Origin: Amphiscolops sp. MND2022
Lineage: Eukaryota
Assembly (NCBI GenBank): GCA_964187785.1
Contig: OZ076409.1
Location: 36,768,001-36,832,000, forward strand
Length of the DNA: 64,000 nt
Direction of reading: 5' to 3'
The notes under the pieces are model-generated. The model made no database searches and had not been told where the DNA came from. It saw nothing but the letters and a program-made list of their open reading frames with translations. Position numbers and translations under genes: made by a program. Below are positions 11,224 to 55,491 of the stretch, piece by piece. Position 1 is the stretch's first letter; each line of letters starts with the position of its first letter.

Positions 11224-11542
11224 GTTACTTACGGGCTTCACTTGAAACTCAGTCAACTATAACGGGTCGTTATGATAATACATGGAGTTATTTACTATAC
11301 AATTAAATTAAAATTAAAAGAAAAGTTGTTAATCACGTTGCAGTGTGCAATTGTGTACTTAAAAGAATTGTAGGAGTTCTTGAGCCCACTAAAAACTTAT
11401 CTGTCACTTTTTCATCCTCTGATTTGTCTTTCCGAATCAAATAATCTATACAAAAAGCTTTTCACAAATCAGTACTGTTTGTGTGTTTTTTTTCTCCTTG
11501 ACTAAGAGGTTTTTTAGTTTTAGGTACCTACCACCGTTTTAG

Positions 11543-17277: not shown

Positions 17278-18191
17278 GTAAATCTAAGAGTTTTCTTGAT
17301 TCACTTGGTTTATTGATTCAGTTTTGTTGTCTTGATTGAAATTTTTCTTGCATGTTTTAATTATGATTTCGTCATACATGTAAATGCTAGGAGTTTAGGA
17401 TATTTTTATTTAATTAGGATCTAATTCATAAATAGAGCAGCTAAATTGGAGTACGAAATTTTTCTGAGTTGTTTTCCATGTGGTAAGGAACCTTTAAAAT
17501 TTCCGCTGAGTATTCATACGTGAAAGGAAAATATTTATATTAGCCACGTTTTTCTTCAAAATTTATACCCAAACTGAAGGGTTTCACTAAGATAATTCAA
17601 CTGACATTTTTATTCTTGACCCCAATGACGACCCCAGAATGACCTAAAATGACCCCAAAAACGTCAAAAATACAAAAATTTCCAAATTTTCAATAATTTG
17701 ATGCAATTTTTGTCAAATCTTTAATACATTTCGTAGATTATACCGTTAAAAATGTTCAACAACGATTGAGTACGTTGTCCGATAGGCTTTTGTGAATAGA
17801 TAAAACCAGTTTTCTGTTGGAAATATGCGTTGAATTGACCTCAAAAAAGTTTAACAAACCTAATTTTTCCCATTCATGTTGTTTTGCATGCAATTTTTTT
17901 AACAATTTTTGAAGGTTTTCATGTTTTCAGGTTAGAAAGTTTAAAACGTTCAAAGACAAACGAACTAGCTAAGCAGTAGGCTTTTCCAAAGAGAAAGCGT
18001 CATTGTTTTGTTTCATAAACTTTTAAGAATGACCTCAAATTAGTCGAAAAACCTTTCAAAGTCCAGTTTTTCGGAGTTTAAAAGCAATTTTTGTTATATT
18101 TTGAGAAAAATAGTTGGTTAGAATGTTGACAATGTTCTACAACGATTGAACGTGTCATCCAGTGGGTTTTTCGGAGATCAGAAAATTTTTG

Positions 18192-18647
18192 TTATTTTCC
18201 GCCCATATTTCATATGGGAAAGGAAAATATTTAAATCAAACGGGTTTTTTTTTTTTTTTTACAAAATTTGCCAAGATTTTATTTATATTTAAATTTAAGG
18301 GTGTTACCCATAGAATTCAACCCACATAAATTTAGCTTCGTGCGATATGTATTTGTAGAGATTTTTGAAGTTTTTTTTAAAAAATGACGAAAATGACCCC
18401 TTAATGACAAAATGACCCCTTAATGACAAAAATTCCCAAATTTCTCATTTTTAAACGTTTTTATGCAATTTTTGCCATTTTTTGAGAGACACCGCGAATT
18501 AGAAAAATGGACAAGATGAATCGAAGCTTTCTTTTCTTCGAACTTCTCAGCGTTTTTATAGTGCATTAGTTATTCTTGAGCCTCATTTATGTAGTTGTAG
18601 AACAGTTCGGGGCGGAAAATATCCCGCTCCTCAGCGGGCGTCTTGTT
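18192..18647 (+). mobile_element. Helentron/DINE-1-like non-autonomous element, family A
   Basis: Subterminal IR TATTTTCCGCCC/GGGCGGAAAATA, 3' hairpin CCCGCT..AGCGGG, ends CGTCTTGTT. Confidence 0.6.
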
Positions 18648-19443
18648 AGAAAAACGTCACGAATTCACCCAATTTTTCTCCGGTTTTTGACTTCATCAAG
18701 AACTGTTTGTGCAAAAAAGTAACACATATCGCGAATTACAATAATAAAAACGTTCCAGACAAAATAACTAGTAATGCAGTACAGTACGCTTTTCAAAATA
18801 AGTTTTTCCGGTTTAACATTACGTCGGATTATGCTGTAATTTCGTGGGTTAGGATAAAAACATTTAATCGAACGAACACGCCATCCACTGTAGGCTTTTG
18901 GAAAAAATGAATTTTCTTGATAGAAAAGTTCTTTAAAATGACTTCCCAAATTGTAAACCCCCCAAAATTGGAATTTTTTTTGCAAATTTCGAGATAATTT
19001 GAAAAGTTTTGTGGGAGAAGAAACAGCAAAGAAAGACTAGCTATGCACTTTGCTTCGTTGATACAAACATTGTCGTTTTGCTCAAAATCATCTCGGAATG
19101 ACTCTAAAAAGTCTAAAAACATCTAGAACGATGTTTTTTGTCCCTATTTTGCTATTTTTGTAAAATTTTTGAGAGAGTTGGCTGATTAGAATTCTAAAAT
19201 TGTTCAACGGCAAACCAAACTTCTAATTAGCATTTTCATAGTGCATTGGCTACTCTTGTGTCTCAAACATATGTTGTTGCTAGAAGAGTGTGAGGCCGAA
19301 CCTATCCCGCTGGTCAGCGGTCGTCTTGTTTTGATTAAACTGTATGTTTGTTTGGTCATGAACTGAAATGATAGATTAGCTTTTGATCATATATTTTCGT
19401 CTGTTTTTGGAGACTTTTCATATGCACATGAATGTTTTTGCAG

Positions 19444-26711: not shown

Positions 26712-28248
26712 TGTCGCAGGCTACCGCCTGCGATGGCCTACTTTATCAAGTCACCCCGGAAGACGACATTAATATTCCAGGACCAGGAGTCCTACCGATC
26801 TAATGGAACTCAAAACTTACGTAACATATTAGTGAGTATTGCTATCTTACTAAACAAACACTTTTTCACGTTATTATGGCGCTTATTTTGATAAATTATG
26901 CAATTTTCCTAAACACTCTGACCTAAGGTCAGTTTGACCGCAATCATTTACTTTTTATTATTTCATATACTGATATGTAAAAATTGTTGATGAACTATTT
27001 TGTCTATTGTGAACCAATCCATACATACAAATATGCAATTAATTGCTTGTTGCAGTTTTGAAATGTAAATTAGAAATCAGTTGAATAAAGCAATGAACTG
27101 GTAAAGGTAAAGGAAACGCGTTCAACTTGTACAGCGCTGCCGTCAAGTTGACGCGTTGTCCAAAATACTTTTAACCAATCAGATTGCGCCAATAGTATAG
27201 TGCTGAAGTCACGCGGACGTTAGGTCCCATTTGCTATTGAAAGCTGTATAATACTCTCAGAAGCATGGAATATTACAGTTCACATGTATTCATTAATATC
27301 TGTTTTGTTGTTGCTTCCATTTATATATTAGAGGACAAGTGACATGTATCAGTTCACCCTAGTTTCTATTTATAGCCAATATTATGTCATAATTAGGTTG
27401 TTGCTATTTTTAATGATGACATCATTAGTATTTTTACTCTATGACGTCCAAAATACTGAGTGTCATGGTGATAAAAGTATATAAACGATGGGTCTGATTT
27501 TGTAAATTCAATTCAATACTGTTGCAGCAATACACATACGCATTGTGAAAGTTAGACAAACTGTTCAATTTACTCTTAAAACGCAAATCTCTCATTAAAA
27601 TGCCCTCAACTAGAAAGCAGAAAGCCAGAGAAAAGCGCTCAAGACAATCAGACGTAATGTCAGACATTGAAAATCTAGAAGTAATGTTGGGAAATTACCA
27701 GGAAGATGATCAAGTTCGGGATGAAGATATTGGTAACACTGATTTTGACTTAGAGTCAAGGGGACCTCAGAGAGAAACTAATTCAATTAGCGGAAACTTT
27801 AGGTCAATATTGAATACTAATGTGAGTGAGAATAGTGAAATTACAGTTGAAACTAGTAGAGCAATAAATTCAGAAATTTCTTCGCAAATGTCTAGGAAAT
27901 TAGATAAAATGATATCAGATCTCAATTCGCATATTCTGAATGCAATTGACTCTGCAATTGAAGAGAAAGTGATTCCCAGCATCAGGAATGCATTGGAAAG
28001 TCAAAATTCATCAAAAAATACAAATACGGACCTTCGGTCAGATGGACCTCATCCGAGTACTTTTGGTCAAGTACGTCCGCAAAGGGACCTTAGGTCAGTT
28101 GGACCTCAGCAACAAATTGCTGGAAAAGCGTCCCAGGATGCTAAGAAAGACTTCCCTAGGTTAGTAACGATGAGTAGTAACCAAATAAATCATCAAAGAG
28201 AGAATTCAGCAGATTCTTGTGGGAGTGATGATGAAAATGGTTACGACA
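26712..28248 (+). repeat. Gypsy 5' LTR (1537 bp), includes gag codons 1-216
   Basis: Direct repeat of 40987-42525, with about 9 substitutions and 2 indels counted by eye. Confidence 0.95.
27366..27485 (+). promoter_or_regulatory. Putative LTR Pol II promoter (MEF2-like x2, CRE-like, TATA)
   Basis: CTATTTATAG 27366, CTATTTTTAA 27404, TGACGTC 27442, TATATAAA 27478; same motif set in the solo LTR at 48687-48820. Confidence 0.5.
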
Positions 28249-29396
28249 TGGTGACAGGAGCCAATCTTACCCCACAAATGGTCCCTGAGTTCCTGACCGG
28301 ACGGCCCATGCAATCCCAAAATGAAATTCCCCATCAACAGTGTGTCCACGATGACACGCTTGATACCACCATCACTGCACAAATACCACCAGTCCCTACT
28401 AACAATAGGGACGTACCCTTTGAAGCACATATAGATCCCATCAACAGACTTGCAGATGTTATTATGGGAATGAATAACAAACCGTCAGCCCAGACACTGA
28501 TGGTACGACCAGTCAATACGACCACACTAACATTTGATGGTAAATCCGAAATGTTTGAACTGTTCGAAGATCTTTTTCACACAATGATAAAGATGCAACC
28601 GGACATGACGGAAACAATGAAAATCAATCATTTTCATTCGCTGTTGCGCAAAAATGCGCTACAGACCTTTCGTAACATCAATTCAGCCAATAGACAAACT
28701 CTTGAGGACATACTAGCAGTCTTCCGGAGGAAATATGTCAAACCCGAGTCTCAGGCAACCGCCAAACACAAATGGCACAAATTAGTATTTGACCCGAATA
28801 CTATGAAACTGCCTGACTTCCTTGAAGAACTCAACCAAGGTGCTGAAAAGGCCTTTGGCGAACATGCCCAAGCAATGATCGACAGTCTGCTGTATGCTAA
28901 ATTGCCGCCCAAACTGAAACGTTCAGTCAATATGGCGCGACTTGAAAACGCAACGTATGAAGAGATTGTCACACACCTCGAACGAGAATTAGAATTGAAT
29001 GGACTTGAGGAAGGTGACGACATTCACGTCCCCACAATGTCCACTGCCCCCACAGCAACACGACCGGGAACTGGCCTCCTTTCGTCTGGCATTGACCCAA
29101 ATGTCACTTGCAACTACTGCAAAAAACCGGGACATGTCAAAGATGACTGCCGAAAACTCAAACGAAAGGAGGAACAAAAGCCCAACGGCGGGCAGGATAC
29201 CAAGAAAGAATATCCCAAATGTCCAACATGCGACAAAACGAATCACCCGGCGGAACGTTGTTGGAAAGGCGCTGGAGCCCACCTCAAGCCCAAAAACCTC
29301 AAATTGGACAATTCCAAAACCGAGGAAACTACCATAGGTCAAGATGACTCCAACAACAAACCTACTACTTCCATTCTCAAAAACCCAAAAAACTAG
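27600..29396 (+). CDS. Gypsy Gag (598 aa), starting inside the 5' LTR
   Basis: TFDGKSEMFELFEDLF capsid-like start; two CCHC knuckles CNYCKKPGHVKDDC and CPTCDKTNHPAERC; ends at A AAA AAC TAG. Confidence 0.9.
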   Translation: MPSTRKQKAREKRSRQSDVMSDIENLEVMLGNYQEDDQVRDEDIGNTDFDLESRGPQRETNSISGNFRSILNTNVSENSEITVETSRAINSEISSQMSRKLDKMISDLNSHILNAIDSAIEEKVIPSIRNALESQNSSKNTNTDLRSDGPHPSTFGQVRPQRDLRSVGPQQQIAGKASQDAKKDFPRLVTMSSNQINHQRENSADSCGSDDENGYDMVTGANLTPQMVPEFLTGRPMQSQNEIPHQQCVHDDTLDTTITAQIPPVPTNNRDVPFEAHIDPINRLADVIMGMNNKPSAQTLMVRPVNTTTLTFDGKSEMFELFEDLFHTMIKMQPDMTETMKINHFHSLLRKNALQTFRNINSANRQTLEDILAVFRRKYVKPESQATAKHKWHKLVFDPNTMKLPDFLEELNQGAEKAFGEHAQAMIDSLLYAKLPPKLKRSVNMARLENATYEEIVTHLERELELNGLEEGDDIHVPTMSTAPTATRPGTGLLSSGIDPNVTCNYCKKPGHVKDDCRKLKRKEEQKPNGGQDTKKEYPKCPTCDKTNHPAERCWKGAGAHLKPKNLKLDNSKTEETTIGQDDSNNKPTTSILKNPKN

Positions 29397-32300
29397 ATGT
29401 GCCACGACTCCACTTTAACGAAAAACTCCGTGTCAGGCAATAGATAATATCTGACCCCCCTACGGTATATTACACTGAACATTACTCTTCACTCAAAGAA
29501 AACTCATCGGCTGACTGGCAGCAGCACGTGAAACACATTCCTAGTAACCTTCAAAAACTGGACCTCCAGTCTGATGGACGGCACTGTAACTTTACCACTA
29601 TTCGTCCTATCCCTCTTGTAGATAACTATAACCCCTACTATCTCGACCCAGACTTTGGTTTCGATCCTTATTGGGACATTCAAATCTACAACCAGCATTA
29701 TTTACATTTCTACAACAATTTTACCAAAAATACCATCGATATAGAACCTGATTCACCCGAGATCGACCAGAATCTCAATACCCACTTGTCCGCGGCGGCA
29801 GTTGACCCTTGGCAAACCACACGAGGTGCTCCCTCTATGGCAACTTATGCCAAACCACAGACGTACCTTCCCCCAGACGGACCTGTGGTCACCCTGACCG
29901 CAACCGTGGCAGAACGCTACATGCACACGCTCATCTCACGAGACGGTGAACCTGATTACGTCCCCTTAACGACGAACTTGGGACTCAAATATAAACGACG
30001 CATGCTCTACTTTCCAATGGATTTTGGCGAACTAACATTAGATGGCCTTGTAGACACGGGAGCGCTATCTAGCGCTATCCCAGAAGCTGATCTACGTAAA
30101 ATCCGCTTATTAGCTCCTCAGTCCAAAATTAAAGAGGGCCCAGCCCCAAACTTCCAAATTATGGTCGCTAATGGACAGTTGGAGACTCCAAAGAGCACAG
30201 TTGAACTCAAATTTGAGGTCGGGGACATCGACTTCCACGAGATATTCATAGTCATGGAAAAACTTACAAGTCCGCTAATTGGTCTCTCATTCCTTCAACG
30301 GAACAACACCATCTTAGATGTGCGGCAGGGAATATTAAATTTCCCATTCTTTTCCATGCAATTGAAAACAGAGGACCACAAATACACTAATGTCATGGAA
30401 CCTATCTGTACCCGAGAGGATATAACTATTCCCCCCAATGACAGACACATGGTCTCCATCTACTCTCAACTATATGACGACACCAACGTCACTGGAATTC
30501 TTCAACCGAGCAATGACCTCGCAGAAGATGGCGATATAACCTTCTGTGCTGCTCTAGTCACACTGACCCAAGGTCAGGTTGCGATCCACGTGAACAATTT
30601 CACCGATCAACCTTACACACTTAAAAAGGGTTCCCACATGGCAAATTTCTCTGTCCTGACCCCAGAACAGATGAAATACGTCAAACCGATTGACCCGGTG
30701 ACCACATGCCACCTCTTACAAGAGAACCCGGAGCATGCCGTCTACTATGCTAGCAGTCTAATCAAATCTCCGAGAAATGACGAAGACAAAGAGAACTATT
30801 GGTTCCCTACCCCAGAAGACCCTGGAGACCCTCAGTCTCATACACCGATCCAACAACGGATTTTGAAAGAACTATACAGCCTCCAAGAGTTAAAAAAACT
30901 CAATCCTCAGGATAACCCTGAGTCCAGAAAACAATTTCTTGCCCATTTTGACTGGACAGATTCTACACTGAATCCAGCCGAAATAACCCAAATTGAGGAA
31001 TTGTTAGTCAAATTCCACGACATCTTCGCTAGACACCGTTTCGACATAGGCATGAATGAAGATTTCAAGGTCAAATTGACTCCTAAAGACGACTCCCCTG
31101 CTTATAGCCAATGCTTACCAACACCAATCAACCTTAAAGAGGACATCCTTGTGGAATTAGGAATGTTACATCGATATGGGATCATAGCAACGCTCCCATT
31201 TTCCAAATATGCAAGCCCTATCTTTGCCCAGAAAAAACCGAATGGTAAACTCCGACTTCTGGTCGACCTCCGAAAGATCAATAATTTGATCTCTGACGAC
31301 TATATTAACAACAACCATCCCGTCAGCACGTTAACAGACGCCGCGCAACATATGGCAGGCAAAAGATTATTTTGCAAACTAGACTGTTCTCAAGCATATC
31401 ACTGCCTCCAGATGGCTGACCAGAGGTCAATTGAGATGCTAGCCTTCAATTTTGCCAGCAGAACATTTGCCTACCGCAGACTTGCACAAGGTCTAAGCAG
31501 AGCTCTGTCAGCTTTCTCGAGCTTTATGCGCGAATACCTGGATAAAGTGATCAACGCGGACCAATGCGCTCAGTACGTTGACGATATTGGAATAGCGGCC
31601 AACAACGCGATACAGCTCATCAACAACCTTCGAGCAACCTTCGAGTGCATTAGGACCGCGGGTCTCAAATTAACCATGCACAAATGTCACTTTGGAGCCA
31701 AAGGAATTGATTTCTTAGGCCGTACCATCACCCCTGAAGGAGTGCGGCCGCAACGACCCAGGGTCCAAAACTTCCTCGAGAAGACAAAATTCCCAAAATC
31801 CAAAAAAGCACTTCAGAGATACTTGGGGTTCCTGAACTACTATCGCAACTACATCCCAAGGCTTTCAGAAAAACTGACACCATTCTTCAAATTACTGAAG
31901 AGCGACGCCAAAGTCATGGTGACTCCTGATCTGCTAGAACAATTCACCGAGATCAACAAAGCTCTTGACCGATGTTCTGAACTTGCACTTAAACAACCTC
32001 TGCCAAACAAACAAATAGCATTGATGACCGATGCTAGTTTCTCGGCAGCAGGTTATGCAGTTCTCATCGAGGATGATCCAATGGAGAAATATAGTTCGAT
32101 GCGGAAAGCCTTCGCACCTGTAGCGTATGGATCCAAGACCTTTAGTCCCGCCCAATTGAAAATGTCCATATACGCGAAAGAATTCTTAGCAATATTCTTT
32201 GCCTTCAAAGAATTTGGACACATCTTTTGGGGGACTCCGAAATCGGTGATAATTCTAACAGACAATAAGTCGGTCACTCGTTTTTTCCAAACTAAAATTA

Positions 32301-34572
32301 TTCCACCAACACTGTGGAACGCTTGTGACTATGTCATGCAGTTCAACTTCACCATAGCACATATACCTGGCAAAAACAACACCGCTGCTGACTATCTGTC
32401 TCGTCTAGAAATCAGCCCTAAAGAAAAACTCATACTCCGCATACGAGAAGACATCTCAATAACGCCCATTGAACTTAACGTCCAATCGGCGGGAGTAACC
32501 GAAGAAGAACAAATATTCTACACGGATGACGACGACGAAACTGAAGAACAAATTTGGAAGCGAAAACGGGACGCCAGGTCAAAACCTTCAAACAACTTCC
32601 CGACATTTTGATGGAAAAACTTAACAAACATGATAGTACATATTTTCAAACTCCAACTTTACAGAAATTAGCCAAACCAATCACCATGGCCATTGAACAA
32701 CAGAATGACATTATCTTACAACAATTGCGATTCAAATTACAAAAAGAGGAATATTCCGAAACCATTTTACAGCAAGATCCACGTTACCGACACTACTGCC
32801 GTCAAATTGACCGTCTGTCCGTCCAGGACGATATCATTTTCCGAGATTATTATGATGAAACTGGCAACGTCCAATTCCGCCAGGCGTTGCTACCGAAACA
32901 CCTTGTCACTGATCTACTCCAATCACTACACGGAGCTGCGAACAAACACCCGGGGATTTCCAAAATGCTTCAGGAAATCCGTCAAAAATATTATTACCCA
33001 GGAATTGCAAAAATTGTCAAAAAATGGGTACAAGGGTGTGAAATCTGTATAAAAGACAAAAGGATCAAAAATACATCGATAACACCAGAATTACTCAACC
33101 TGCCTGAATGGGACCTCGGCCCGGAAGATGCCTTACAAATTGATCTTCTACCTAACCTACCACCTAGTGGAGGATACGAAAACATCATAACGGCCCTAGA
33201 CGTTTTTTCAAGGTACCTTTTCGCCTATCCAGTAACTGACGCATCAGCCACTAGTACAGCAAAAGTACTTATCGATATAATGACCAGACACACTTACCTA
33301 CCAACTACACTGATCACCGACAAAGGAACAGCATTTACGTCCCGCCTAGTTGACGAAATTGCAAAAATCCTAGGCATTCAAATAAAGTGTGCAACGACGA
33401 AACATCCTCAAACAATTGGTAAACTAGAACGCACTCATGCAAGTCTTAAAGGAAACCTTAAAATGGCATCAGGCGAATATCGACGACAATGGCACAAATA
33501 TCTACCATTGGCAGTACTCAATTATAACACGACCTATCATTCAAGCCTAGGATGTGAACCTTCCAGAATTTTTCATGGCCGGATACCGTATAATATCCTA
33601 GACCACAGGTTAGGACTCAATCCTAACCCAAAGATCTTACCTACAACTGATTTTGCGGAGGAATTTCAAAGGCGCACGCAAATACTTATAGACAGAACAA
33701 AGAAAAACATAATGCAATCCTACCTAAAATACAAGGAATACTATGACCGGAAGGCTAAGGCAGCCCCATTAGAACTCGGCGGCTACTGTTTCATTTTGCA
33801 ACCACTAGCTGACCATCAGGGCTCTAAAATTCCATTCCGGGAGTTCAGGTGTATTGGACCTTATGTCATCGAAAAGGTCCTCCCCAATGAGAATTACATT
33901 GTACGCAAACTCAATTCTAACAAGACACAGATCTTACATCGAATCCGATTACGAAAATACACGCCAAACGTTACGCTACAAGACAATCGCCCGCAAGGCA
34001 ATCTGCAAGCGGATGACGAAATCATCATCCCTCAAGACGATTTATATATTATTTCGTGGGAAACGGATTTTGACGAATTTCCCACCGCTGATGCTTCCAA
34101 AAGCAAGTCGGCCGAGTCTTTAGCTGATTCTGATTAACAGGACACTATAATTACAGATTTGGACCTGCGGTCCAACCGACGCGACGAAAATACCGATGAC
34201 GCTACTACTGGGCAGCGTGGAAACGAAAGCTGCGATGAGGACCTTAGGTCAAATCGACGACAACAAGATACTCGCTCAGATGACACTGAGCAATTACCCG
34301 AGCAACCAGACGCAAATATGACCGACACGGAACTTAGGTCAACTCGACCGCAGCAGGATACTGATTCAAAAATGGACGAAACGACCTCTAAACGCCCTTC
34401 AGAAGCGGAAGATTCGGAATTTTTCGATTTTAGAGGCAAGGATATAATCGTGCCCGATTTATCAAACGATGAAAATGAGGAAATGGTTGTAGAAAATGAA
34501 AGTCCCAGGGGAGGGAAATACAATCTACGTCCCAACCCGACTCCAAACTTTAGTGATGAATACAGATACTAG
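29393..34572 (+). pseudogene. Gypsy pol (protease, dUTPase-like insert, RT, RNase H, integrase), disrupted
   Basis: LVDTGA; QYVDD; MTDAS; H..H..CEIC; QIDLL/TDKGTAF/KLER; IGPY module. In the -1 frame relative to gag. Lesions: TAG at 29441-29443, frameshift near 32590, in-frame TAA at 34135-34137. Confidence 0.92.
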
Positions 34573-34725
34573 CAAAAGAAAGTAAATTCGCTACACCCCC
34601 TGATTTTTACTGAATTGGACTCTTGGGGGGCTTTGACTAACTATCGACTCTTTATAACTCAACAAAGACTGAACATCTATATCAAACATAAACACAAGAA
34701 AAGTTCACAAATATACAAAATACAA

Positions 34726-37700
34726 TTAGGATTTACTACATCCAGCAACTAGATCTTCTGCAGAACGGGTCAACTCAGTTTCACTCAGCAACTGCGTGGT
34801 TTTCTTCATCAGTGCCCCATACTTCTTCTTCTTGGCCTTACTGACACTGGATGATTCAGACTCAAGATCCACTGGTGGCGCGGGTTGAAATGAACCTTTA
34901 GGGTCCAACTGCTCCAAAAGTTTAGTACGTCCAAAATAGTCGACGCTCAACCAAGGATAATACACGTCACTTAGCCCCTGTGTCCCAAAATCTGGCTCTA
35001 GCAGAAGAAATTTGGAAATCGACTGCTCGGAAGTAACAGTCTCCACTCCTCGAGGCACATTGCGGAAGTATGATTGTACTGGCAGTATCACGTCAACTTG
35101 ACTGCAGGTCGGATCTTCAGTATTAACTGAGCCGAAAGTAACAACTGGCAAACTCTCAAAGGGTTCATCCAAGCAAAAGCAGGCAAGACGAAACAACTTG
35201 TACAACAAGGGACGACTGGTCAATGATGCCTGAGCTACTAAGAAATCGACAGTGTCTTTCACGAACAGGGTAGGCTGTATGAGATCAGGAAAAGTCTGAC
35301 GCATCACGTCAACGAAGGAACGATACTCTTCAGTGCAGGGACACTCTTGATCAAGGGAGAAATAGCCCCTGGGTCGGAAACTCGTAAATAACTGCCTGTG
35401 GCAGTACATGGCATGTTCTATGGACCCAGTCAATAGAGTTTCAAGGTCAAACGAACCCAGTCCTTTCACCAGATCAGTGGTCAAACTATTTTGGTGCTGC
35501 ATTGAATTGAAGAGATGTGTGACGTAACTCCGTGCAGCTCGTCCAAATTCTTCTTTATGCTTGCCAGACAGGGCATCTAGAGGCAAGCCTTCAGTTTGTT
35601 TGTCCTTTACGTCACGCTCAGCTTTGGCCTTACATGCGTTGTCTAATTTTGTGCCCAGCTTGATCCGAGTTATGAACTCAGAAACACTAAGTGCAGCGAC
35701 TCGCTTTAGGTCCAGTTCCAAGATCTCTGACCATTGGTCCTCAGGAGGGATGCCTTTGGGACTAGCACATCTGCGGGCAAGTGTGAGGAGATACTGGCAA
35801 AGTTGGCGAAAGTATAAAACCCTCGCTCTCTGCGGCCTGACAAGCTGATGGAGAAACTCGTTGCATCTAAACATCATAAATATTCAACGATATTGATTAA
35901 GGTGTAATTCCCAAGCAGGAGAAAACTTGACTAACAATCACGCGAGAGCTTTTGAAACAACTCCAATTTACAGGTGAATAAATCGTCACACAATATATAC
36001 CATTCCAAATTCTGAGGCTAGAATAGAACAAGACCATAATCAGCAGGTTATTCAATTAAGGACCTTAAGTCAAAATGACCACACCAATTTACCTGCTTGG
36101 ACACTCCCATCATGGGATAGTACAGAGAGTGAGCGGTTAGGAATTCGGTAACAGAGCTCCAGTTGTTCAACAATTCACGACATAGAATGTGAAGCTTCGC
36201 AACATCAAGTCGACAATCACGAATAGCCTAAACCAGAGATCAATTTGAGACTGACAGAAAAGAGTTATATAAAACAAAGGAAGCAGTGATGCTAACCCTA
36301 GCCAATTCAGGGGTAACGAGAATCCACTCTAGGTCGAGACTTCCTCCGAGGCAAACGACAATATACTTGATCACAGCATAGAAGTTTATTCTGCCGAAAA
36401 CGCTGTAGCTCTTCTTATGCATGACCGTCTCCAGAGAAATTTCCTCAAAGCGCTTTCTGCTCTGGACGGCCAGTGAGAAAAGGGGACACTCATCTAGTAA
36501 CTGGACTAAAGATTGGGTACAGCCACTACAACACACAGGACTAGCGCGAGGAGAAATTGCTGCCAAGAGGTAAGACAATAGGCACAACTCTGCTGAGGTC
36601 TGCCCGACTGTGCGTCCAGTTCTTCGGATCAATACTCGACACAATTGACCCTCATGCCAAAACCGAAGGTGGAGAAAGAGCATGGCCCCTTCTGTTCAAA
36701 CTCGAGTGCGTAGAACCCGCTGCTCAGCACGTGATTGGCCAAATCTTCTAGCAGTTGGACGAAGATGTGATGAAATAGCACCTGCAAAACAACAGAGTAC
36801 ACGTTTAACCAAGGAAGAAGACAGTGCTTACATTGGGTCCACTTAGATTACAGATGAGGGGTTGATGATATCACAAAACCTAAGTTGACCTTAGGACAAA
36901 CAAACACGCAATTATTACTTACAGACAAACGCTCTTTGCCCCAGTTGAAATCTGTGAACAGTGACTGGTGGTTAGCAACCACCCCAATGTCTTTCCAAAG
37001 TTCACGTAGCGTTCCAAGGTTCCCGAAAGTCGGCAAAGCGTGACCCAGGATGGAGATCTGAACCCTGACGCGATTTTCAGAGGAAGAAGCCATATGGTCA
37101 TGTCCCGCCATAAACTCGTCGTAGAAGGGTAACTTCACGCCTATGTCTACCAACTCGACGTCAATGAACTTTGGCAATTCAGCTTCCAGTTCTAGAGGGG
37201 AAAGCAACTTCCCGTCCCTGCCCCAGGACATGATGATGGACAACTTGAGTCACAGGGTCCACGACGCCAAGGTGCTCATAGCGCCAACGTTGATCCTTGC
37301 GCAGATGACGCTCGGTAGCATGATGACGTAAAATTTCTTTTGGACCTCTGCCATAGATCGAAACGTTGCCCTTACAAATCTGGCAGTAAAATTTGTAGCG
37401 GTTCCATTTGGGATCCATAGGTCCTGAAACGAAGGTGCGAGCCCAAGACATACCCTTGAAGTATTCTTCACGCATAATCTTACAGGATCTTCCTACGCCT
37501 CGGTGCGAGCTTCTAGTTTTGGCTTTGGAGGACTTCTTTGGGTGTTTTTTGGACCTGTCTCGTTGGGCCTCATGCTTTAACTCAGCTAAGGTCTGAGCGC
37601 CCGGACTAGCACATGACTGATTTGGAATTGTGGACCCAAAGTCGCCCTGACCACAACCCGAAGGAGGAGGAGTGATCGCTTGCATTGATGAACCTTGACT

Positions 37701-39074
37701 GGAAGCAACCTCATGCGAGTATTCAGTTCCCCAAAAGTCTGACTCATTCAGATCAGGACCACTAGTGTAGCTGCCTCCTTCGGACGTAAAACCACATGAA
37801 GTCCCTTCACCTTCTGAATCGGACAAGGGAGTACGTGGAAAGGGACTCTTGCACCGATCATCCCGTCTGGTCGCCGCTCTCTCTCCCAGGCTCATCCTGC
37901 TGGCACGCATTACTACGCTGTTGAGCATTTCAAACGAGGAACGCGCGGTCTCATCTGCCACAACCTTCAAAATGTGCTCGATCTGATCGTGATTGAATGC
38001 TACAGTTGGATGGCCTCGAGGAAGACTTATAGGTTGCGACTCAGAGAAGTATTTGCGGATGACCTCTCGGCTGGTGGAAGATAACGTTGCTGACTTACTG
38101 GCTGCAGGACGCTCAGGCTCTGAATCAGTTCCGCTAGTTTCGTCACTTGGTAATCCTTCTAGTCTCGGTTGGCGCGCTGTCAAAGCATCAGCTAGAGTAG
38201 ACCGTGCGTAAGCATTGGAATCAGCGTCACTCTCAACTGGAGTTACTGCATCACTGGTTGTGGCTGCAAAGTTTGCCGCAGAAACTGGTCGGGAAGGGGA
38301 CTTGAGGTCAGACTGACCAGACGCTTCGGGAACGGTGGATGCAATACTAGGTTCCACAGAGGAAATTTCAGCCTCCTCAATCACAGAATTGATGGGTACA
38401 CGGTTTTTCTTCCTGTCAGGATCCTTGTTATCATCTTTCAGACTGGACTGAAGGTATCTTGTTGACGGGTTAAAAGAGATCACTTTCGGGCTATCAGAAC
38501 TTTGCGTGGGCTCAGGCGAGGATTTTTCAACTTGGGGAAACAAAGTCAATTGTCCACTTTCGCTCGATTTTTCCACCGAAGTGGCTTGCACTTCATATTC
38601 GTTCAGACTGGTCTCTAGCGCTGCCAATTTTCGAGAAATGTATCTCCCACAACTTTCGTCGGACCCGCTACTGCTGATAGCGTATCCTGGAGCTGCGGGC
38701 GACTCATTTTGCGCTGGCGCAGAAGTGACACCAGATCCACTAACTGTAGCTTCAGGCTCAGGAGTGGTCATTTCTACATCAGTAGTCTTTTCAACAGACT
38801 TGGATTCAATGAATGGCTGCTGTTCCTTCCGCACTTCCGGACTGGGTGAATCAGCAGGAACGAGTTCGAGAGTCTTCGGTTCAGCAGCATTGGTCTTGCT
38901 CTCATTGTCGTCCTTTGCAAGTTGAGACGTAGTGCTAAGATATTCAGTGTCATCGGAATTCTCCTGGCTAACTTCCATAGTTTCTACTGCTTGAGGAGTT
39001 AGTTGGCCAATTTGCTCATTATCTAAATGAAAAGAAATGAATTGACGCGGTTCACTTCCTGCAAATATGTCCAT
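34726..39074 (-). pseudogene. Antisense intron-containing accessory gene (BED-like Zn finger, hAT-transposase-like), frameshifted in this copy
   Basis: ORF pieces 39074-37179, 37243-36923, 36781-36297, 36227-36093, from 36017, and 35877-34726. GT-AG introns at 36922-36782, 36296-36228 and 36092-36018. CQIC-x15-HH-x4-H finger at 37391-37305. Confidence 0.65.
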
Positions 39075-40160
39075 CTTACCGCAATTTCAAAGACTTCCGG
39101 AAGCAAGTTCAAATGTTCACGCTCAAAATGAGTTGTTCACGATGGAGGAAGTAGCAAAGTTAAATGAAAGCCCTGATCAAGTTTGAATTTAACAACTTAA
39201 AGAACCAACCTGAAGGCACTTCCATGACGGAAGGTCTGAATTTTCCTCGTTTAGTCGTCACCCGGTGTTTCACTGGAGAATCGGGGTGTTTCGTTGATGG
39301 GGATTTCTCTCCGCTACGTCGGGATACTGTTAGCTGGGACGGTATTATGATTGGAAAGGCACTTTCTGACTGACGTAGACAGCTACTAGTTTCACAGTAA
39401 TATCAGAATTAGAAAGAAGTTGACCGTAAGTCAATTTGACGAGACTATAATTGGCCCACTATAGATATGACTAATACTTTATGTAGCTATATAGACCATT
39501 GGTCACATAGTCTACACGACTTTACTTCTCATATTTCGCACAATGTGTTTGAACTTCTATTTCCGCTTTACTCTGATTAAACTAAAGCAAGACGGATTAC
39601 TTACTAACTACTTTGTAATTTTTATTTATTAATTATGGACGTCGTGGCTACATGCTAAAGATCACCACCTATAACAATCATATCTATATATACAAAATGA
39701 AATTTTCCTTGTTGCGGAACCTGCCAGTGAAGTACTCGGATCAATTTCATTTTCCTTTTCCCATCTTTTATGCGATTATTCTTTCACCATTAGCCTCATT
39801 ATTTCAAATTCATCAGCTTCAGCAGCCATTTTATGCTATTATTATCATCACGCACTGGGATTGGCTACTTGAGTTGGTGCCGCCGAACTGACCGACGGTC
39901 TTTGAAGAAATTTGTTGACAGAGAATTAACAACTATCACACTTATAACGTCAAGTGACGCCTTTGAAGAACTGAATAAAAAACAATATTAAGAGGCAATT
40001 AACAACCCCAGCCGATAAATTGGTTGAAAATCTTTTGCGGAACTAGATAAGAATAAAACCTAAACAGGAAAAGCTAACCGATGGTCCGAGTAAAACCCCG
40101 CGCTTGTTTCCCGCTAGAATCGGGGTTGGACCTAAGGTCAGATAGACCGCAGAAATTTAC

Positions 40161-41078
40161 TTGCCTTATTATCATCTCGAAAACCAGTCGCTTAAAATTT
40201 TCGAAAGCAAAATTGCGAAAAAGATACTTCTCCAACGGTATATCGGTGACATGGCGTTACAATTCAACTGCGATCCCTACCCAAGGTCACTGGTAGATTT
40301 GAGCTACCAATCGTCAGAGGAAGATATGGATGTTGATTCCATAACCTCGACTCATGATGTGCAAGATTCCGTTAGCGACGATGACGACATTCAAGTCTTA
40401 GCTTGCTATCGCATCAGCCCTGAATTTCCCCAGCAATTAGTAGCAGGCCGTGCGATGACCACGGAAATCACCGAATATCTCAACGATCTTAACTTGCCAA
40501 GCAGTGAATTAGTTGAATCCGCAAGTACCTTTTCTGAACCGTCAAATTCCCTAGTGGACTGGTTTATTGGTAATCCACCACCCTCTTATTATGGACAATC
40601 AATTAGCAATCACCCGATCGCACACTGTAGCCAGGTTGACCCAGTGTCGGACTCCCCCCTTTCGCCGCCGCTGATTGATCAGCAACCTACATATGACTCC
40701 CGCCCGGATGACCACCAGTCACTTACTCGGGAAAGTTGGACCAACAATCCCCATATTACAGGACTTGGAATAAGCATGAGCGGGACCTGCGGTCAGCCAA
40801 ATGACGTCTATCATACAGGATGCATTGTGTGCGGTAAGAGTTACCCAGCAATCAAGGAGGAAATTACGCTGGGATATTTAGAGAGCATTCATATTCAAGG
40901 AGAAACATATGAGACGAGAATGGCAAAGCGCTACGCTTTTGAAGCAGGAATGAATGCGGGATCATTCATTCTTGTACCCCGGGGAGTGTCGCAGGCTACC
41001 GCCTGCGATGGCCTACTTTATCAAGTCACCCCGGAAGACGACATTAAATTTCCAGGACCAGGAGTCCTACCGATCTAA
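40161..41078 (+). CDS. Accessory ORF of unknown function running through the PPT into the 3' LTR
   Basis: 305 open codons (first ATG 40251); H-x2-CIVC motif; last 29 codons conserved with synonymous changes in the solo LTR at 48074-48163. Confidence 0.7.
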   Translation: MPYYHLENQSLKIFESKIAKKILLQRYIGDMALQFNCDPYPRSLVDLSYQSSEEDMDVDSITSTHDVQDSVSDDDDIQVLACYRISPEFPQQLVAGRAMTTEITEYLNDLNLPSSELVESASTFSEPSNSLVDWFIGNPPPSYYGQSISNHPIAHCSQVDPVSDSPLSPPLIDQQPTYDSRPDDHQSLTRESWTNNPHITGLGISMSGTCGQPNDVYHTGCIVCGKSYPAIKEEITLGYLESIHIQGETYETRMAKRYAFEAGMNAGSFILVPRGVSQATACDGLLYQVTPEDDIKFPGPGVLPI

Positions 41079-42525
41079 TGGAACTCAAAACTTACGTAAC
41101 ATATTAGTGAGTATTGCTATCTTACTAAACAAACACTTTTTCACGTTATTATGGCGCTTATTTTGATAAATTATGCAATTTTTCTAAACACTCTGACCTA
41201 AGGTCAGTTTGACCGCAATCATTTACTTTTTATTATTTCATATACTGATATGTAAAAATTGTTGATGAACTATTTTGTATATTGTGAACCAATCCATACA
41301 TACAAATATGCAATTAATTGCTTGTTGCAGTTTTGAAATGTAAATTAGAAATCAGTTGAATAAAGCAATGAACTGGTAAAGGTAAAGGAAACGCGTTCAA
41401 CTTGTACAGCGCTGCCGTCAAGTTGACGCGTTGTCCAAAATACTTTTAACCAATCAGATTGCGCCAATAGTATAGTGCTGAAGTCACACGGACGTTAGGT
41501 CCCATTTGCTATTGAAAGCTGTATAATACTCTCAGAAGCATGGAATATTACAGTTCACATGTATTCATTAATATCTGTTTTGTTGTTGCTTCCATTTATA
41601 TATTAGAGGACAAGTGACGTAATGTATCAGTTCACCCTAGTTTCTATTTATAGCCAATATTATGTCATAATTAGGTTGTTGCTATTTTTAATGATGACAT
41701 CATTAGTATTTTTACTCTATGACGTCCAAAATACTGAGTGTCATGGTGATAAAAGTATATAAACGATGGGTCTGATTTTGTAAATTCAATTCAATACTGT
41801 TGCAGCAATACACATACGCATTGTGAAAGTTAGACAAACTGTTCAATTTACTCTTAAAACGCAAATCTCTCATTAAAATCCCTCAACTAGAAAGCAGAAA
41901 GCCAGAGAAAAGCGCTCAAGACAATCAGACGTAATGTCAGACATTGAAAATCTAGATGTAATGTTGGGAAATTACCAGGAAGATGATCAAGTTCGGGATG
42001 AAGATATTGGTAACACTGATTTTGACTTAGAGTCAAGGGGACCTCAGAGAGAAACTAATTCAATTAGCGGAAACTTTAGGTCAATATTGAATACTAATGT
42101 GAGTGAGAATAGTGAAATTACAGTTGAAACTAGTAGAGCAATAAATTCAGAAATTTCTTCGCAAATGTCTAGGAAATTAGATAAAATGAGATCAGATCTC
42201 AATTCGCATATTCTGAATGCAATTGACTCTGCAATTGAAGAGAAAGTGATTCCCAGCATCAGGAATGCATTGGAAAGTCAAAATTCATCAAAAAATACAA
42301 ATACGGACCTTCGGTCAGATGGACCTCATCCGAGTACTTTTCGTCAAGTACGTCCGCAAAGGGACCTTAGGTCAGTTGGACCTCAGCAACAAATTGCTGG
42401 AAAAGCGTCCCAGGATGCTAAGAAAGACTTCCCTAGGTTAGTAACGATGAGTAGTAACCAAATAAATCATCAAAGAAAGAATTCAGCAGATTCTTGTGGG
42501 AGTGATGATGAAAATGGTTACGACA
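40987..42525 (+). repeat. Gypsy 3' LTR (1539 bp)
   Basis: Direct repeat of the 5' LTR; gag ATG lost by a 1-bp deletion near 41880. Confidence 0.95.
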
Positions 42526-45075: not shown

Positions 45076-45300
45076 TTATTTTCCGCCCCCACAATTCGGA
45101 GGAAAGTCGCCACCTGTTGGCTTTTTTTCCAAATTCCGCCAAATCTCCACTTTGTTACTCCATTTAATATGTGGATATTTCAGTCACCGTGCCCACTTGG
45201 TAGTGCGTCCGTCTGGCAAACTGGAGGTCGTGGGTTCGAACCCGGGCTGTAGCCTGAAATTTTTATGGCGGGAAATATCCCGGTGCTTAGCGGGCGTCTT
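45076..45300 (+). mobile_element. Family A repeat copy with tRNA-like core
   Basis: Family A termini; TGGTAG...GGTTCGAACCC. Confidence 0.6.
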
Positions 45301-45538
45301 TTATTTTAAAATGTTGCAATTTGGGGAAAATGTTTGGTCAACAATTGATTGATATACAATAGTAACCTGGTTCTTCAATATGGCGGAATATCAACGCTTT
45401 TCAAGTCCTCAGAAATTAAATGAGAAAGTAATCAATGACTCGAACAATGGTCGACACATTCACCAAAGATGGAAAGTTTGGATGAATAATCTTCAGTTTC
45501 CACCCGATCTTTTATGTACGCGTCGCAATGTCTTTTAG

Positions 45539-47930: not shown

Positions 47931-48999
47931 TTTAATAGAAAAGAGAAAGGTCTTCCACAGATTTTACAGAGTGGAAAATTAGGTTCGAAGCAATGTATTC
48001 AATGATTTCTTCCTGAAAAAAAGCTTGGAACAATGTTCCCCAAAGGCATCATAAAGTGACAAAATGCCAAGTGTCGCAGGCTGCCGCCTGTGACGGCAAC
48101 AAGTACCAAGTGGCCCCTAACGACAGTCACTTGTATTACATACCCGGAGTCCTACCTCTGTGATTAGTTGGACAATTGGTCCCTTTGCCTTAAACTTTTT
48201 GACTTGATTTAGTATGTTTAATATGTAAATTATTTTAGTTTACTATTATTGAACATGTAACGTATATTAGTGTTAATGTAAACCAGAAAAGGATGATCGA
48301 TGTTTATCTGTATGATAATTGAAACAGGTACTGTAATTAAGCTGTATGCAATAAAGGAAACGCGTTTAAAGTGAAATTCACTTTGGTCAGTTCGACGCGC
48401 AGTCCATTTTGATTATTATCCAATCACGTGCTAGTATTCATCATTCACTTAGTCTGCCTGTTCAGTTTGTAGTATTTAGTCAAACGGACTACCAGTCCGC
48501 AGTGCTGTAGTTGCTAACGATATTTAGTCGGAAGGACCACCGGTCCGCAAAGACGTAATATTTACATCAGCGTACTGTGCAAACAAGCGCTAACCTTTCA
48601 AGCTACGCACAACGTGATTTGAAAGGCAGACCGCCTGTCAGTCCATATCTCATTCTCCCATTCAAAGACCCATAACCCAAACGATGCTATTTTTAGATAT
48701 GATCCAATAATGACGCAATGTTGACGTCAGGACCTAGTGTCATTTTGACCATGTTTAGTGGCTATTTTTAGTAACATGACCACTGAAATTATGCTTGTCA
48801 TGCACCATTTAGTATAAATAGGTGATTCTCATTGTCCTAGGGACACAACTTTCGAATACGACGATATAAACACAAATCACAAACTGTTGCTCATTGATCA
48901 ATCTTTGTTATTGTTCTGTTCTTTTCATTTTCTCTCAGTTCAAGTTTAGTTAACTGATAAAAGCTCAATACACTTTTTTCTGAGCAATAAATTCTTCAA

Positions 49000-49910
49000 A
49001 TGCCTTCGACGAGAAAGCAAAAGGCTAGGGAGAAGAGGTCAAGACAATCGGACGTGATTTCCGACTTAGAGAATGTAGATATAATGTTAGGAAATTACTC
49101 CAGAAATGAGTTAGATAGTCAGTTAGGAGAAAGAGAGACTGAGTTAGACCTTGAGCCTAATGGCCTTCAAACTGCAAACCCTATTAGTGAAGACTTCAGG
49201 TCACTGAATAATACCAATAGTAGGGAAAATAGCGAAATTACCATTGAGACCGCAAGGCTGATAAATAATGAAATCACGTCCCAGGTGACAAGGAAACTAG
49301 ATGAAATGAGAAGTGATTTGAATACACAAATTTTGGAGGTTATCAACTCAGCACTTACTGAAAAGGTACTACCAAGCATTCAAAACGTACTAGGAGTTAA
49401 AAATTCGGAATCAGACGCAATTAGGGACCCACAGTCCAGTAGACTAAACAGGAGCCCCGAAGATCACTTTGGCCATATGGACCACCAGTCCCAAGGACTT
49501 AATGAGGGCCTCAGAGAATATTCCAATAGTGTGGACCACTGCTCCAATGAACTAAATAACAAGGGCCGTAGAGATCAATCTTGTTACGCGACCCACCGGT
49601 CCAGAGGACTAGATAAAGGCCTTAGAGTCTGTTTTCAGGCCAGACGGACACCAGTTCAATAGACCAAACGACAATTCAGGAGACCAGTATGGTCAAACGG
49701 ACTACAGGTCCCCAAGACAAGACAAAGGCTCTAAAGGTTACAGCGGTGTATTGGCCAACAGGTCCATCAGACCGGATAACAGCTCAGGAGAGCATTTAGG
49801 CCCACAGGACCAACAAAACTGCATGAAAGCAGATAAGAGATTCAGCAGTCATAGAGGTTTGAATACTGAGATCTCAACGGACTCCCAGACCTCAGAACAA
49901 GATTGCGACA
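49000..49910 (+). pseudogene. Gag N-terminal segment encoded by the solo LTR (frameshifted)
   Basis: MPSTRKQKAREKRSRQSDV identical to the Gag at 27600; 220-aa ORF, then a second frame ending ...EQDCD at the LTR end. Confidence 0.85.
49425..49812 (+). repeat. Degenerate ~54-bp tandem array (7-8 units) inside the LTR-encoded Gag
   Basis: Each unit starts with a GGACYnnnRGTCC-like palindrome (49425, 49479, 49533, ~49590, ~49646, 49699, 49753). Confidence 0.75.
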
Positions 49911-54495: not shown

Positions 54496-55200
54496 GTTGG
54501 CAGGCCTTCAAGTTCTATCATCCCATCCCAAATTGAAGGGTTGTTTGGTCATTTATGTCGGGAGACAGCTCTTCCTTTGATAATAGCTTTGAAAAGCTGT
54601 TTTTGCTGCAGAAAATTATGAAGTCGAAGAGAAAGCTCGAATTTTTTTTCAAAACCGATGCAGTTTGATTGATCTGAACAGTTTGAATTAAAAGGCTATA
54701 TTAGCACGCTTACACAGAAGATTTGTGGTTGTTTTGTTGATATGTACCATTTTGTTCGAAATTTTTAATCACAAAGGAGATGATTAACTTCGAGCATATG
54801 AACTTTATACTTCTGAAACTTTCCGGCAACTTAACCTTGGCTTTAAAAAAAGACCAAGATTTTTCGAGAAATTGGCTTTAAACGTGTAACATTTCTTTTC
54901 CAAACAGAGACTGACACAATTGTGTGTTAATATGCCAATAGAGGTTGCATAGTATCGAAAATGTTTTGAGTGATTCTCAGTGGACTATGCAAAAAATAGT
55001 GCAGTCAGCTAACATTCACTGCGCATGTAATCGATTGGTTGCAGCGAAATCCAGTGTTTCAACCATTGGAGTGGGTTGACACTCCATGCATGTCGTATTA
55101 CGATTTGCTACGATTGCGTCTCCATCACGTGAGAATCTTAGCAGTGATCAGGGTTACCGAAATTAATATTTTGGTAATATTGTAGCCAAAAATACTTTTA

Positions 55201-55491
55201 TTATTTTCCGCCCACATATAATGGGGGAGGAAAATCATGATCTGTGTTGGTTTTTTTTCCAAATTCTGCCAAATCCCCTCCCAGTTCCTCCCACTTATAG
55301 TTACTTGACTATCTTGGCGCCATCCACTACTTGACTACTTTATATAGTTACTTGACTATTTTAGTTACTTGAACTGAAATCTCCACCATGGTAGTGCGTC
55401 TGCCTGGTAGACACGAGGTCGTGGGTTCGAACCCAGGCTGATGCGTTACATTTTTAGCGGAAAATATCCCGGTGCTTAGCGGGCGTCTTGT
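55201..55491 (+). mobile_element. Family A repeat copy with tRNA-like core and internal AGTTACTTGACT repeats
   Basis: Family A termini; B-box GGTTCGAACCC. Confidence 0.6.

Follow-up and report, generated by a model that had tools for sequence, protein, structure and literature searches.

The Gypsy LTR retrotransposon of Amphiscolops sp. described here, 15.8 kb long and occupying positions 26712-42525 of the window (the whole 64-kb stretch of DNA analysed, to which all coordinates refer), carries a conserved unit of three alternating trimers at fixed 8-bp steps, GAC-n5-GTC-n5-GAC, which is restricted to two related LTR families and is retained at the level of codons both in pol and in related proteins. 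The motif is best explained, with a probability that we put at about even, as an element-wide operator array for the element's own antisense-encoded protein, a predicted catalytically dead hAT derivative that would keep family copies active against silencing. A more far-reaching account is that a hAT transposase was captured by a lineage of animal LTR retrotransposons and catalytically disabled there, and that the lineage rewrote its entire genome, reverse transcriptase (RT) included, as an operator array for it; this account is tentative and in our judgement falls clearly below an even chance.

The element has the attributes of Ty3/Gypsy, namely the protease-RT-RNase H-integrase order, TG...CA LTRs, a primer-binding site and a short target duplication (5 bp, TCTGA). 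Its 5' LTR (26712-28248, + strand; ends TGTCG...CGACA; 8 GAC-n5-GTC cores, 6 triples) and 3' LTR (40987-42525, +) are identical at 1528 of 1537 aligned bases, and the primer-binding site starts at 28249, directly after the 5' LTR. The sense strand further comprises gag (27600-29396; CCHC knuckle, about 216 codons within the LTR), pol part 1 (29444-32611; protease, dUTPase-like domain, RT and RNase H) and, past a frame break near 32545-32611, the integrase with an acidic tail that holds 2 triples (32545-34572), an ORF interrupted in the present copy by a stop codon at 34135-34137. A sense accessory ORF (40146-41078, +; 310 aa from stop to stop, one CxxC) extends into U3 of the 3' LTR, and a search for a family match to it found none. 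A solo LTR of a related family (48072-49910, +; 5-bp duplication CCAAG) contains 10 cores and 8 triples, is 62% identical to the element LTR across 1399 aligned bases, and carries the motif variant GGACY-nnn-RGTCC.

Lag analysis yielded sharp peaks at 8 and 16 bp, with 40 GAC-to-GTC and 25 GTC-to-GAC pairs against 4.1 per lag in each case. Enrichment over background, a check proposed in an earlier note on this DNA, is pronounced: the 5' LTR and internal region hold 40 cores, dispersed without strand between 26781 and 40794, against 2.7 expected, and 19 triples against 0.07 expected. The triples start at 26920, 27142, 27208, 27747, 28029, 28086, 29561, 29880, 30557, 32801, 34162, 34240, 35092, 36061, 36598, 37633, 38299, 39422 and 40129, and on the + strand 13 of them read GAC-GTC-GAC and 6 GTC-GAC-GTC. 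Within the window, exact GACCnnnGGTC occurs 19 times (0.28 expected; 18 of the 19 in the Gypsy element) and the full pattern GACCnnnGGTCnnnnnGAC 12 times (0.02 expected). All 33 window triples lie in the Gypsy element or the diverged solo LTR; the approximately 45 kb of BEL element and host DNA contains none, and the BEL element, in which the earlier note had not noticed the motif, indeed lacks it, with 0 triples and 4 cores against 1.7 expected. The majority of cores fall in ORFs. The same note had not noticed the motif in the RT/integrase core, which is incorrect, as RT-RNase H (30901-32460) has 7 cores and the integrase 3 cores and 1 triple, with exact cores of the enzyme region at, for example, 31418, 31654 and 31755; its placing of copies read as DLRS in the Gag tail also needs amending for 28029 and 28086, which belong to the Gag N-terminus within the LTR. 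Altogether, the motif is more widespread than had been reported, the solo LTR included.

The proposal that the constraint acts on nucleic acid rather than on protein is supported because synonymous shuffling, the contrast between trimers and spacers, and a codon footprint in homologues all point in this direction. In shuffles that kept protein and codon usage fixed, the ORFs' 32 cores and 13 triples compared with 5.8 and 0.6 (P=0.0005), pol part 1 had 13 cores against 1.9, and sites in RT, RNase H and integrase survived the control. Between the element LTR and the solo LTR, the only two LTR families compared at the DNA level and both from the 64-kb window, 4 of 6 triples are intact, with trimers identical at 36 of 36 positions and spacers at 13 of 40. 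The gaps between cores average 359 bp and are no more regular than random (CV 0.90 against 0.97). Flanks outside the motif were searched for conservation shared across copies, and none was found.

The codon footprint was obtained from protein sequence alone. Among 20 de-duplicated main-clade N-termini of the antisense family, GAC-n5-GTC ranked first of 768 palindromes, with z 7.8, rising to z 11 once conserved islands were masked; since the homologues are related by ancestry, their sites are not independent. D-x-x-S occurred 144 times against 79 in this clade, the excess lying where a pyrimidine-start codon follows D (93 against 36.5), and the kinase-site controls E-x-x-S and D-x-x-T were flat; one footprint control, [RG][LPHQR]x[IL], was likewise enriched (56 against 28.7). 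At a single anchored site, the neighbours conformed to codon classes in 24/27, 22/27 and 27/27 cases, against backgrounds of 0.28, 0.27 and 0.46. Distant clades showed no GAC footprint (ranks 261-619 of 768; D-x-x-S 63 against 64), and a replacement motif was sought in them and not found. As to co-variation of finger and motif, which had also been suggested as a check, the footprint marks the main clade and is lacking in distant ones, one of which retains a finger helix similar to that of the main clade.

The antisense gene belongs to a large, conserved family (113 clusters, 1442 member sequences) with an invariant C2H2 finger. Predicted exon 1 (36923-39074, - strand; frame change near 37210) encodes a disordered S/T/P-rich and acidic region of about 520 aa, a basic stretch, a BED-type finger and helices, and exon 2 (36297-36781, -; frame change near 36690) a core with the modelled RNase H-like topology beta1-beta2-beta3-alpha-beta4-alpha. 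Predicted exons 3 (36227-36093, -) and 4 (36017-35936, -), between which the triple at 36061 sits in a predicted intron, are matched by homologues P0172, P0183 and P0189, and predicted exon 5 (34726-35870, -; frame change near 35820, acceptor read from the sequence at about 35867) encodes a helical domain weakly matching Hermes residues 373-609. The four zinc ligands of the finger, C-x2-C-x16-H-x5-H, are invariant in 41/41 aligned rows and fit the BED signature CX2CXnHX3-5(H/C) (PMC7471704). Pfam BED, DUF4371 and hAT-dimer had no match among the 41 and 55 family members searched, the sole Pfam resemblance of the finger being a ZN292-like C2H2 domain, below cut-off, in 29/41 members.

On weak fold matches together with domain order, the gene is predicted to descend from a hAT transposase. 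In Foldseek, neither model had a hit at E<=0.001; Hermes ranked first at E 0.21 and made up 8 of the top 20 rows. In VIA, Hermes gave the longest alignment for the exon 2 model (Z 5.3, rmsd 5.2, 133 aligned) and for the exon 5 model (Z 4.8, rmsd 6.4, 157 aligned), neither match being significant by itself: Z values of 4.8-5.3 are what common arrangements give, and other RNase H-like folds reach the same or higher scores. A hAT origin had been guessed for this gene ahead of any fold search. With the register placed by eye from secondary structure and hAT motifs, the first DDE position is E in 13/15 sequences and D in 1, the second is S in 18/20, and the CxxH positions are S in 16/18 and R in 15/18; the DDE triad and CxxH of an active hAT transposase were not found in this register, and we infer from it that the catalytic residues have been lost. 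ERxFS is present in 1 of 150 exon-5 homologues. A search for inverted repeats of at least 30 nt near the gene, which sits between the LTR pair, found none.

A multimeric, element-encoded zinc-finger protein, as the earlier note envisaged, is made more plausible as a candidate binder of the motif because the antisense gene resembles a derivative of a hAT transposase and encodes a finger of the BED type. The predicted protein would bind alternating GAC/GTC half-sites through several such fingers, an oligomer setting two or three of them onto one triple, and the long acidic disordered N-terminus could recruit host chromatin or transcription factors; antisense orientation would allow the introns to survive reverse transcription. 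Binding would mark the element's own copies, probably keeping them expressed; that it would activate (anti-silencing) and not repress is pure inference.

Hermes offers a precedent in the cooperative binding of its three BED domains to a quasi-palindrome and a further repeat, rigidly phased (PMC10368747), an arrangement like the one envisaged for the triples. With the predicted protein it would share the order of a BED finger, an RNase H-like core and a helical insertion. Hermes is, however, an active enzyme whose AAG(T/C) half-sites lie at the ends of the element with another spacing (PMC10368747), whereas here catalytic positions seem substituted, the protein gains a disordered N-terminus of 520 aa and sites occur throughout a retrotransposon. 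The analogy with VANC drawn in the earlier note holds only for the mode of working: both would involve an element-encoded accessory protein, family-specific recognition and a short motif accumulated in the element's own family, introns and intergenic DNA included. It does not extend to the sites or the effect, as VANC, from the Mutator-like VANDAL DNA transposons of Arabidopsis, recognises 8-9-bp non-palindromic motifs in non-coding tandem repeats and causes loss of DNA methylation, and the coding-region probes tested in that report lacked motifs (PMC5735166), whereas this animal LTR retrotransposon carries dispersed, spaced trimers in coding sequence amid host DNA that is barely CpG-depleted (observed/expected 0.92). 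Transposases can activate their own copies in a sequence-specific manner, and regulators arise from them by loss of catalysis; TnpA of Spm/CACTA and AtMu1 transposase resemble the case proposed here as transposase-derived, sequence-specific regulators of cognate copies that need dense motif clusters (bioRxiv 10.64898/2026.08.24.746577). Those regulators, as described there, remain in a DNA transposon or turn into host genes and bind termini, whereas in the present case a class II protein seems to work for a class I element; the main text of that report has no whole-word mention of 'retrotransposon' or 'Gypsy'. Retand TRP28 is likewise an antisense gene that a Gypsy element conserves downstream of pol and ahead of its 3' LTR, predicted to encode a DNA-binding regulator, but it has a PF04195 domain, tandem arrays and an occurrence in plants only, and the portions of the reports available identify no binding motif (PMC11963269, PMC7264820); PF04195 had no hit in the antisense family at E<=0.1. 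Foamy-virus Tas is a retroelement trans-activator with response elements in two places, the LTR and an internal promoter, but these elements are few, its gene is on the sense strand and a transposase origin is not described in the accessible text (PMC12789967).

A 2019 review, in the sections available, lists only three transposon-encoded anti-silencing mechanisms, all in plants (PMC6719617), and the target of the conserved antisense genes of Gypsy elements is so far unnamed in the corresponding portions of the reports on them (PMC11963269, PMC7264820). Here a single animal retrotransposon provides both a candidate binder and an exactly specified candidate site, and over 1400 related sequences have been recorded; retrotransposon self-recognition therefore becomes directly testable by one binding assay. 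If the more far-reaching capture account is true, sequence-specific anti-silencing would exist in an animal retrotransposon, against non-methylation silencing, and may account for the lineage's very large expansion. With self-recognition, the transposase-to-transcription-factor route would extend across transposon classes, and a retroelement would be able to carry dense DNA-level constraint within pol.

The same element protein might instead bind the motif as a brake or guide, in auto-repression, copy-number control, cDNA protection or the steering of integration to or from existing copies. The motif and protein evidence applies equally to such a role, and sites in coding regions rather than the promoter alone would suit a coating of the whole DNA; we nevertheless regard it as unlikely. 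Activation regions are often acidic and S/T/P-rich, and the N-terminal 520 aa resemble many of them (D+E 79, K+R 51), while the known transposon-encoded binders of their own motif (VANC, TnpA, AtMu1 transposase, foamy-virus Tas) have an activating or de-silencing effect in the accounts considered.

Slightly more doubtful is exploitation of a host transcription factor, either some other host dimer or a nuclear receptor on TGACCT-n-AGGTCA-nnn-TGACC, which combines everted repeat 1 with inverted repeat 3. In U3 the best site, 26920, has the look of a textbook composite of such receptor half-sites; distant clades, moreover, carry the gene without a GAC footprint. Against a host factor stand the confinement of triples to the two LTR families and the seven cores in RT-RNase H, remote from any promoter. 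An RGGTCA nuclear-receptor response element fits the half-sites poorly, TGACCY accounting for 8/57 in the element and 0/24 in the solo LTR, and the base preceding GAC is often G; a host factor of another class may still be the binder.

Reading of the motif by another element protein, whether the accessory ORF product, integrase or Gag, is a weaker proposition again, even though the solo LTR begins with a stretch in which the accessory protein sequence is conserved (read from sequence comparison) and the LTR ends themselves carry a GTC/GAC trimer. The accessory ORF has no recognisable DNA-binding domain, integrase acts on ends and Gag on RNA, and the antisense product is, by prediction, the sole element protein that combines a sequence-specific DNA-binding fold with oligomeric ancestry.

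RNA stem-loops for packaging or dimerisation of genomic RNA, offered earlier as an alternative, are very improbable. GACC-nnn-GGTC can fold as a 4-bp hairpin and triple orientation is biased (13 against 6), but enrichment is not shared by other stems of 3 bp closing a 5-nt loop (2.9-fold for the runner-up, median 1.06), variants with G-U wobble show none (2, 1 and 4 against 3.2, 1.6 and 3.3), two non-pairing variants are enriched (9 against 4.9 and 14 against 4.7), pairing neither extends nor co-varies (P 0.22-0.66), the third half-site would compete for that same partner, and an Rfam search gave no match. Chance, base composition, protein constraint or local duplication, the last of which may underlie the near neighbours 28029/28086 and 34162/34240/34330, is refuted as the source of the motif, with a negligible residual probability, by dinucleotide and synonymous-codon nulls that are far exceeded, by flanks that share no conservation and by spacers that drift while trimers stay conserved.

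At each of the 17 positions listed in the earlier note the motif is present, exactly or nearly so: nine of its 12 full or near copies match GACCnnnGGTCnnnnnGAC exactly and three have one mismatch (34330, 36061 and 39422), and four of its five core-only copies are exact, 36887 having one mismatch. Those at 41195, 42306 and 42363 are the 3' LTR duplicates of 26920, 28029 and 28086.

The motif observation is confirmed and extended here: a short palindromic sequence is dispersed through the Gypsy element at 26712-42525 (LTRs 99.4% identical, PBS at 28249, 5-bp target duplication; domain order Gag, protease, dUTPase-like, RT, RNase H, integrase). At each of the 17 coordinates listed in the earlier note the motif is present, either intact or with a single mismatch, and the window contains 19 exact copies of GACCnnnGGTC where 0.28 would be expected. 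Lag analysis resolves the repeating unit as GAC-n5-GTC-n5-GAC, a run of three alternating trimers that each start 8 bp after the one before (hereafter the triple, its first two trimers forming the core). Counts rise to 40 and 25 at lag 8 and to 19 and 11 at lag 16, from a background of 2.6-6.3 per lag, and the bases adjoining the trimers show weaker preferences. With one LTR counted, the element holds 40 cores against 2.7 and 19 triples against 0.07 in dinucleotide shuffles, in addition to 22 one-mismatch triples against 2.1 expected.

The distribution of the unit is equally specific, as all 33 triples of the window lie within this element or within a solo LTR of a diverged related family (48072-49910). 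The BEL/Pao element at 894-8388, whose 2163-aa ORF is unbroken and whose 159-nt terminal repeats are identical, is triple-free, in line with the earlier note, which noticed no motif there, and so is the host DNA of the window. The absence from the RT and integrase core that the note also gave does not hold, given seven cores in RT-RNase H and three cores plus one triple in integrase. No regular, nucleosome-like spacing of the sites was seen. Two near-motifs are also raised within 26712-40986 (AAC-n5-GTC, 14 against 4.7; GAC-n5-ATC, 9 against 4.9), while their reverse complements are not enriched, an unexplained asymmetry that could reflect strand-biased G-to-A decay or tolerance.

The constraint on the motif acts on DNA. 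When protein sequence and codon usage are held fixed, 5.8 cores and 0.6 triples would be expected in the ORFs of the Gypsy element, which contain 32 and 13 (P=0.0005). The RT-RNase H region by itself contains 6 cores against 0.64, and BEL pol stays at background level. The two LTR families share 62% identity, and four of six LTR triples are intact at aligned positions in both, with 36/36 trimer bases and 13/40 spacer bases identical; of the other two, one is lost and one falls within an unalignable stretch. The synonymous test and the conservation of trimers over spacers thus bear out the proposal that nucleic acid rather than protein is under constraint.

The element also carries a minus-strand gene running from 39074 to 34726, between pol and the 3' end, with five predicted exons that total about 1330 codons. 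The splice sites of its predicted introns are canonical (the last acceptor, near 35867, was placed by eye), pieces of it are matched by natural homologues, and in the window copy the reading frame changes near 37210, 36690 and 35820. Its family, unnamed and found in ENA only, numbers 1442 member sequences in 113 clusters; JGI metagenomes, IMG/VR and GTDB yielded no DNA of relatives, and none of 5682 candidates was a longer protein containing exon 5. Seventy ORFs extend as far as the exon 1 boundary, and 67 of these terminate no more than 60 residues from it, consistent with a shared first intron. The protein begins with 520 disordered, acidic, S/T/P-rich residues, followed by a basic stretch, and its finger, C-x2-C-x16-H-x5-H, is invariant in 41/41 aligned rows. 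Two related ORFs are chimeric, and both are signs of nested insertion or rearrangement: in P0009 the finger gene is fused with Gag sequence where LTR and PBS meet, and in P0214, judged by eye, an integrase-like stretch is fused with exon 5. Four divergent members on short contigs of 2-5 kb (P0097, P0098, P0102 and P0103) possibly derive from other host species.

The modelled folds make this protein a probable derivative of a hAT transposase. Sequence searches with the family against Pfam and PDB gave no useful match, the ESM Atlas no usable match, and Foldseek with the exon-5 model no match at E<=0.001 in PDB or BFVD. For that model (pLDDT 81), residues 373-609 of the Hermes transposase formed the longest VIA alignment (Z 4.8, rmsd 6.4, 157 residues), which is not significant alone. 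The second model, a natural homologue read through intron 1, shows the RNase H-like topology beta1-beta2-beta3-alpha-beta4-alpha; Hermes ranks first for it in Foldseek (E 0.21, 8 of the 20 top rows) and gives the longest VIA alignment (Z 5.3, rmsd 5.2, 133 residues), neither being significant alone, and is not among the 50 matches listed in a wide VIA search. What speaks for hAT descent is that two separate models match successive parts of Hermes, ordered as they should be and preceded by a BED-signature finger, hAT having been guessed before any fold search. In a register set by eye, nearly all homologues lack the second catalytic aspartate as well as the CxxH and glutamate motifs, and the protein is therefore probably a dead enzyme.

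A trace of the motif was sought in the disordered N-termini of homologous proteins, by comparing 768 spaced palindromes in 20 de-duplicated main-clade proteins and in 16-17 proteins of distant clades; the clades come from a quick tree that leaves out 14 of the 113 proteins as too short. GAC-n5-GTC ranks first of 768 in the main clade, in a sample whose counts are not independent because the proteins are related; after masking, GTC-n5-GAC ranks fourth and ACC-n3-GGT fifth, and random subsets of eight proteins give ranks of 1, 15, 3 and 2. In the triple test GAC-n5 ranks only 6/256 in the main clade, a pattern above it being attributed to a conserved peptide, and one footprint control was also enriched. 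The excess of D-x-x-S is limited to D followed by a codon starting with a pyrimidine and does not extend to E-x-x-S or D-x-x-T, and a kinase-site explanation of D-x-x-S was rejected. At one anchored site the flanks vary among chemically unlike residues that retain the same required bases; 36 of 73 main-clade proteins lack the anchor, and 8 of 37 anchored proteins lack D-x-x-S there.

The GAC footprint is absent from the 16-17 distant-clade proteins, which would fit a lineage-specific site, and one distant clade retains a similar finger helix despite this absence. The spaced-palindrome and triple tests found no replacement motif there: a candidate, GGA-n5-TCC / TCN-n5-NGA, was rejected at a triple-test rank of only 29/256, its signal coming from a peptide conserved at the N-terminus and from kinase-type S-x-x-D/E sites (191 vs 142).

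Most likely the element would code for its own motif reader, and we consider it fairly probable that the antisense-encoded protein is this putative binder. In Hermes, as described in PMC10368747, the BED fingers of three protomers bind a quasi-palindrome cooperatively together with a third repeat, and phasing matters. An oligomeric reader of this kind would select for a fixed-step triple of alternating half-sites, although half-site sequence and spacing differ between the two systems; the predicted likeness to Hermes is one of anatomy, not of activity. Sites recur about every 360 bp along the whole Gypsy element, a spread that would suit the coating of an integrated copy rather than a promoter switch. 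The effect of such a reader could be repression or integration guidance, both of which rank behind activation or anti-silencing, placed first because of the analogy with VANC (PMC5735166) and TnpA (bioRxiv 10.64898/2026.08.24.746577) and the acidic, disordered N-terminus. The Gypsy system would work in a similar way and belongs to neither. CpG o/e is 0.92 in the host DNA of the window, so the silencing that an activating reader would oppose is probably other than CpG methylation. The whole putative model, an own-encoded binder with an activating effect, stands at an even balance of probability. The self-recognition reading of the earlier note is partly supported, keeps its DNA-level constraint and is sharpened to a probable dead hAT transposase, encoded antisense, with a dense candidate operator array. 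Retand antisense ORFs (PMC11963269, PMC7264820) share the gene placement and differ in domain, and literature of partial coverage described no LTR retrotransposon with a gene that derives from a transposase and binds a motif.

Two other readings fit the motif poorly. RNA hairpins, which the earlier note had offered as an alternative, would draw on the palindrome as a stem; enrichment does not extend to other 3-bp stems or to wobble variants, pairing shows neither extension nor co-variation, and Rfam returned no match. Nuclear-receptor sites fare badly as well, TGACCY being matched by 8 of 57 half-sites in the element and 0 of 24 in the solo LTR.

Several further features accompany the Gypsy element. 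In both LTR families the LTR itself contains the beginning of Gag, about 216 codons, at 27600-28248 and 49000-49662, and the Gag start codon is altered in the full element's 3' LTR copy. The dUTPase-like domain, unusual in Gypsy elements, lies between protease and RT at about 30400-30650 (PF00692, E 5.6e-5). A sense accessory ORF without family match (40146-41078) crosses the PPT region into U3, and its C-terminal end is kept at the protein level in the solo LTR (48072-48160). The GTC/GAC trimer recurs in the LTR ends TGTCG...CGACA (26712, 42525, 48072, 49910), which are similar to halves of the human ZBED1 site, given as TGTCG(C/T)GA(C/T)A in PMC7471704, a likeness that may be coincidental.

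Elsewhere in the window, a dynein heavy-chain exon at 10564-11262 (PF08393, E 3.8e-97) suggests that the elements may lie within introns of that host gene. Together with short spliceosomal introns, this exon points to an animal host. ARAGORN found no tRNA gene. Short dispersed repeat families, MITE- or SINE-like, occupy 9352-10260, 17493-19330, 45122-45303, 55197-55492, 60192-60481 and 62994-63709, one of them with a tRNA B-box-like stretch, and a tandem array with a 49-bp unit lies at 63002-63152.
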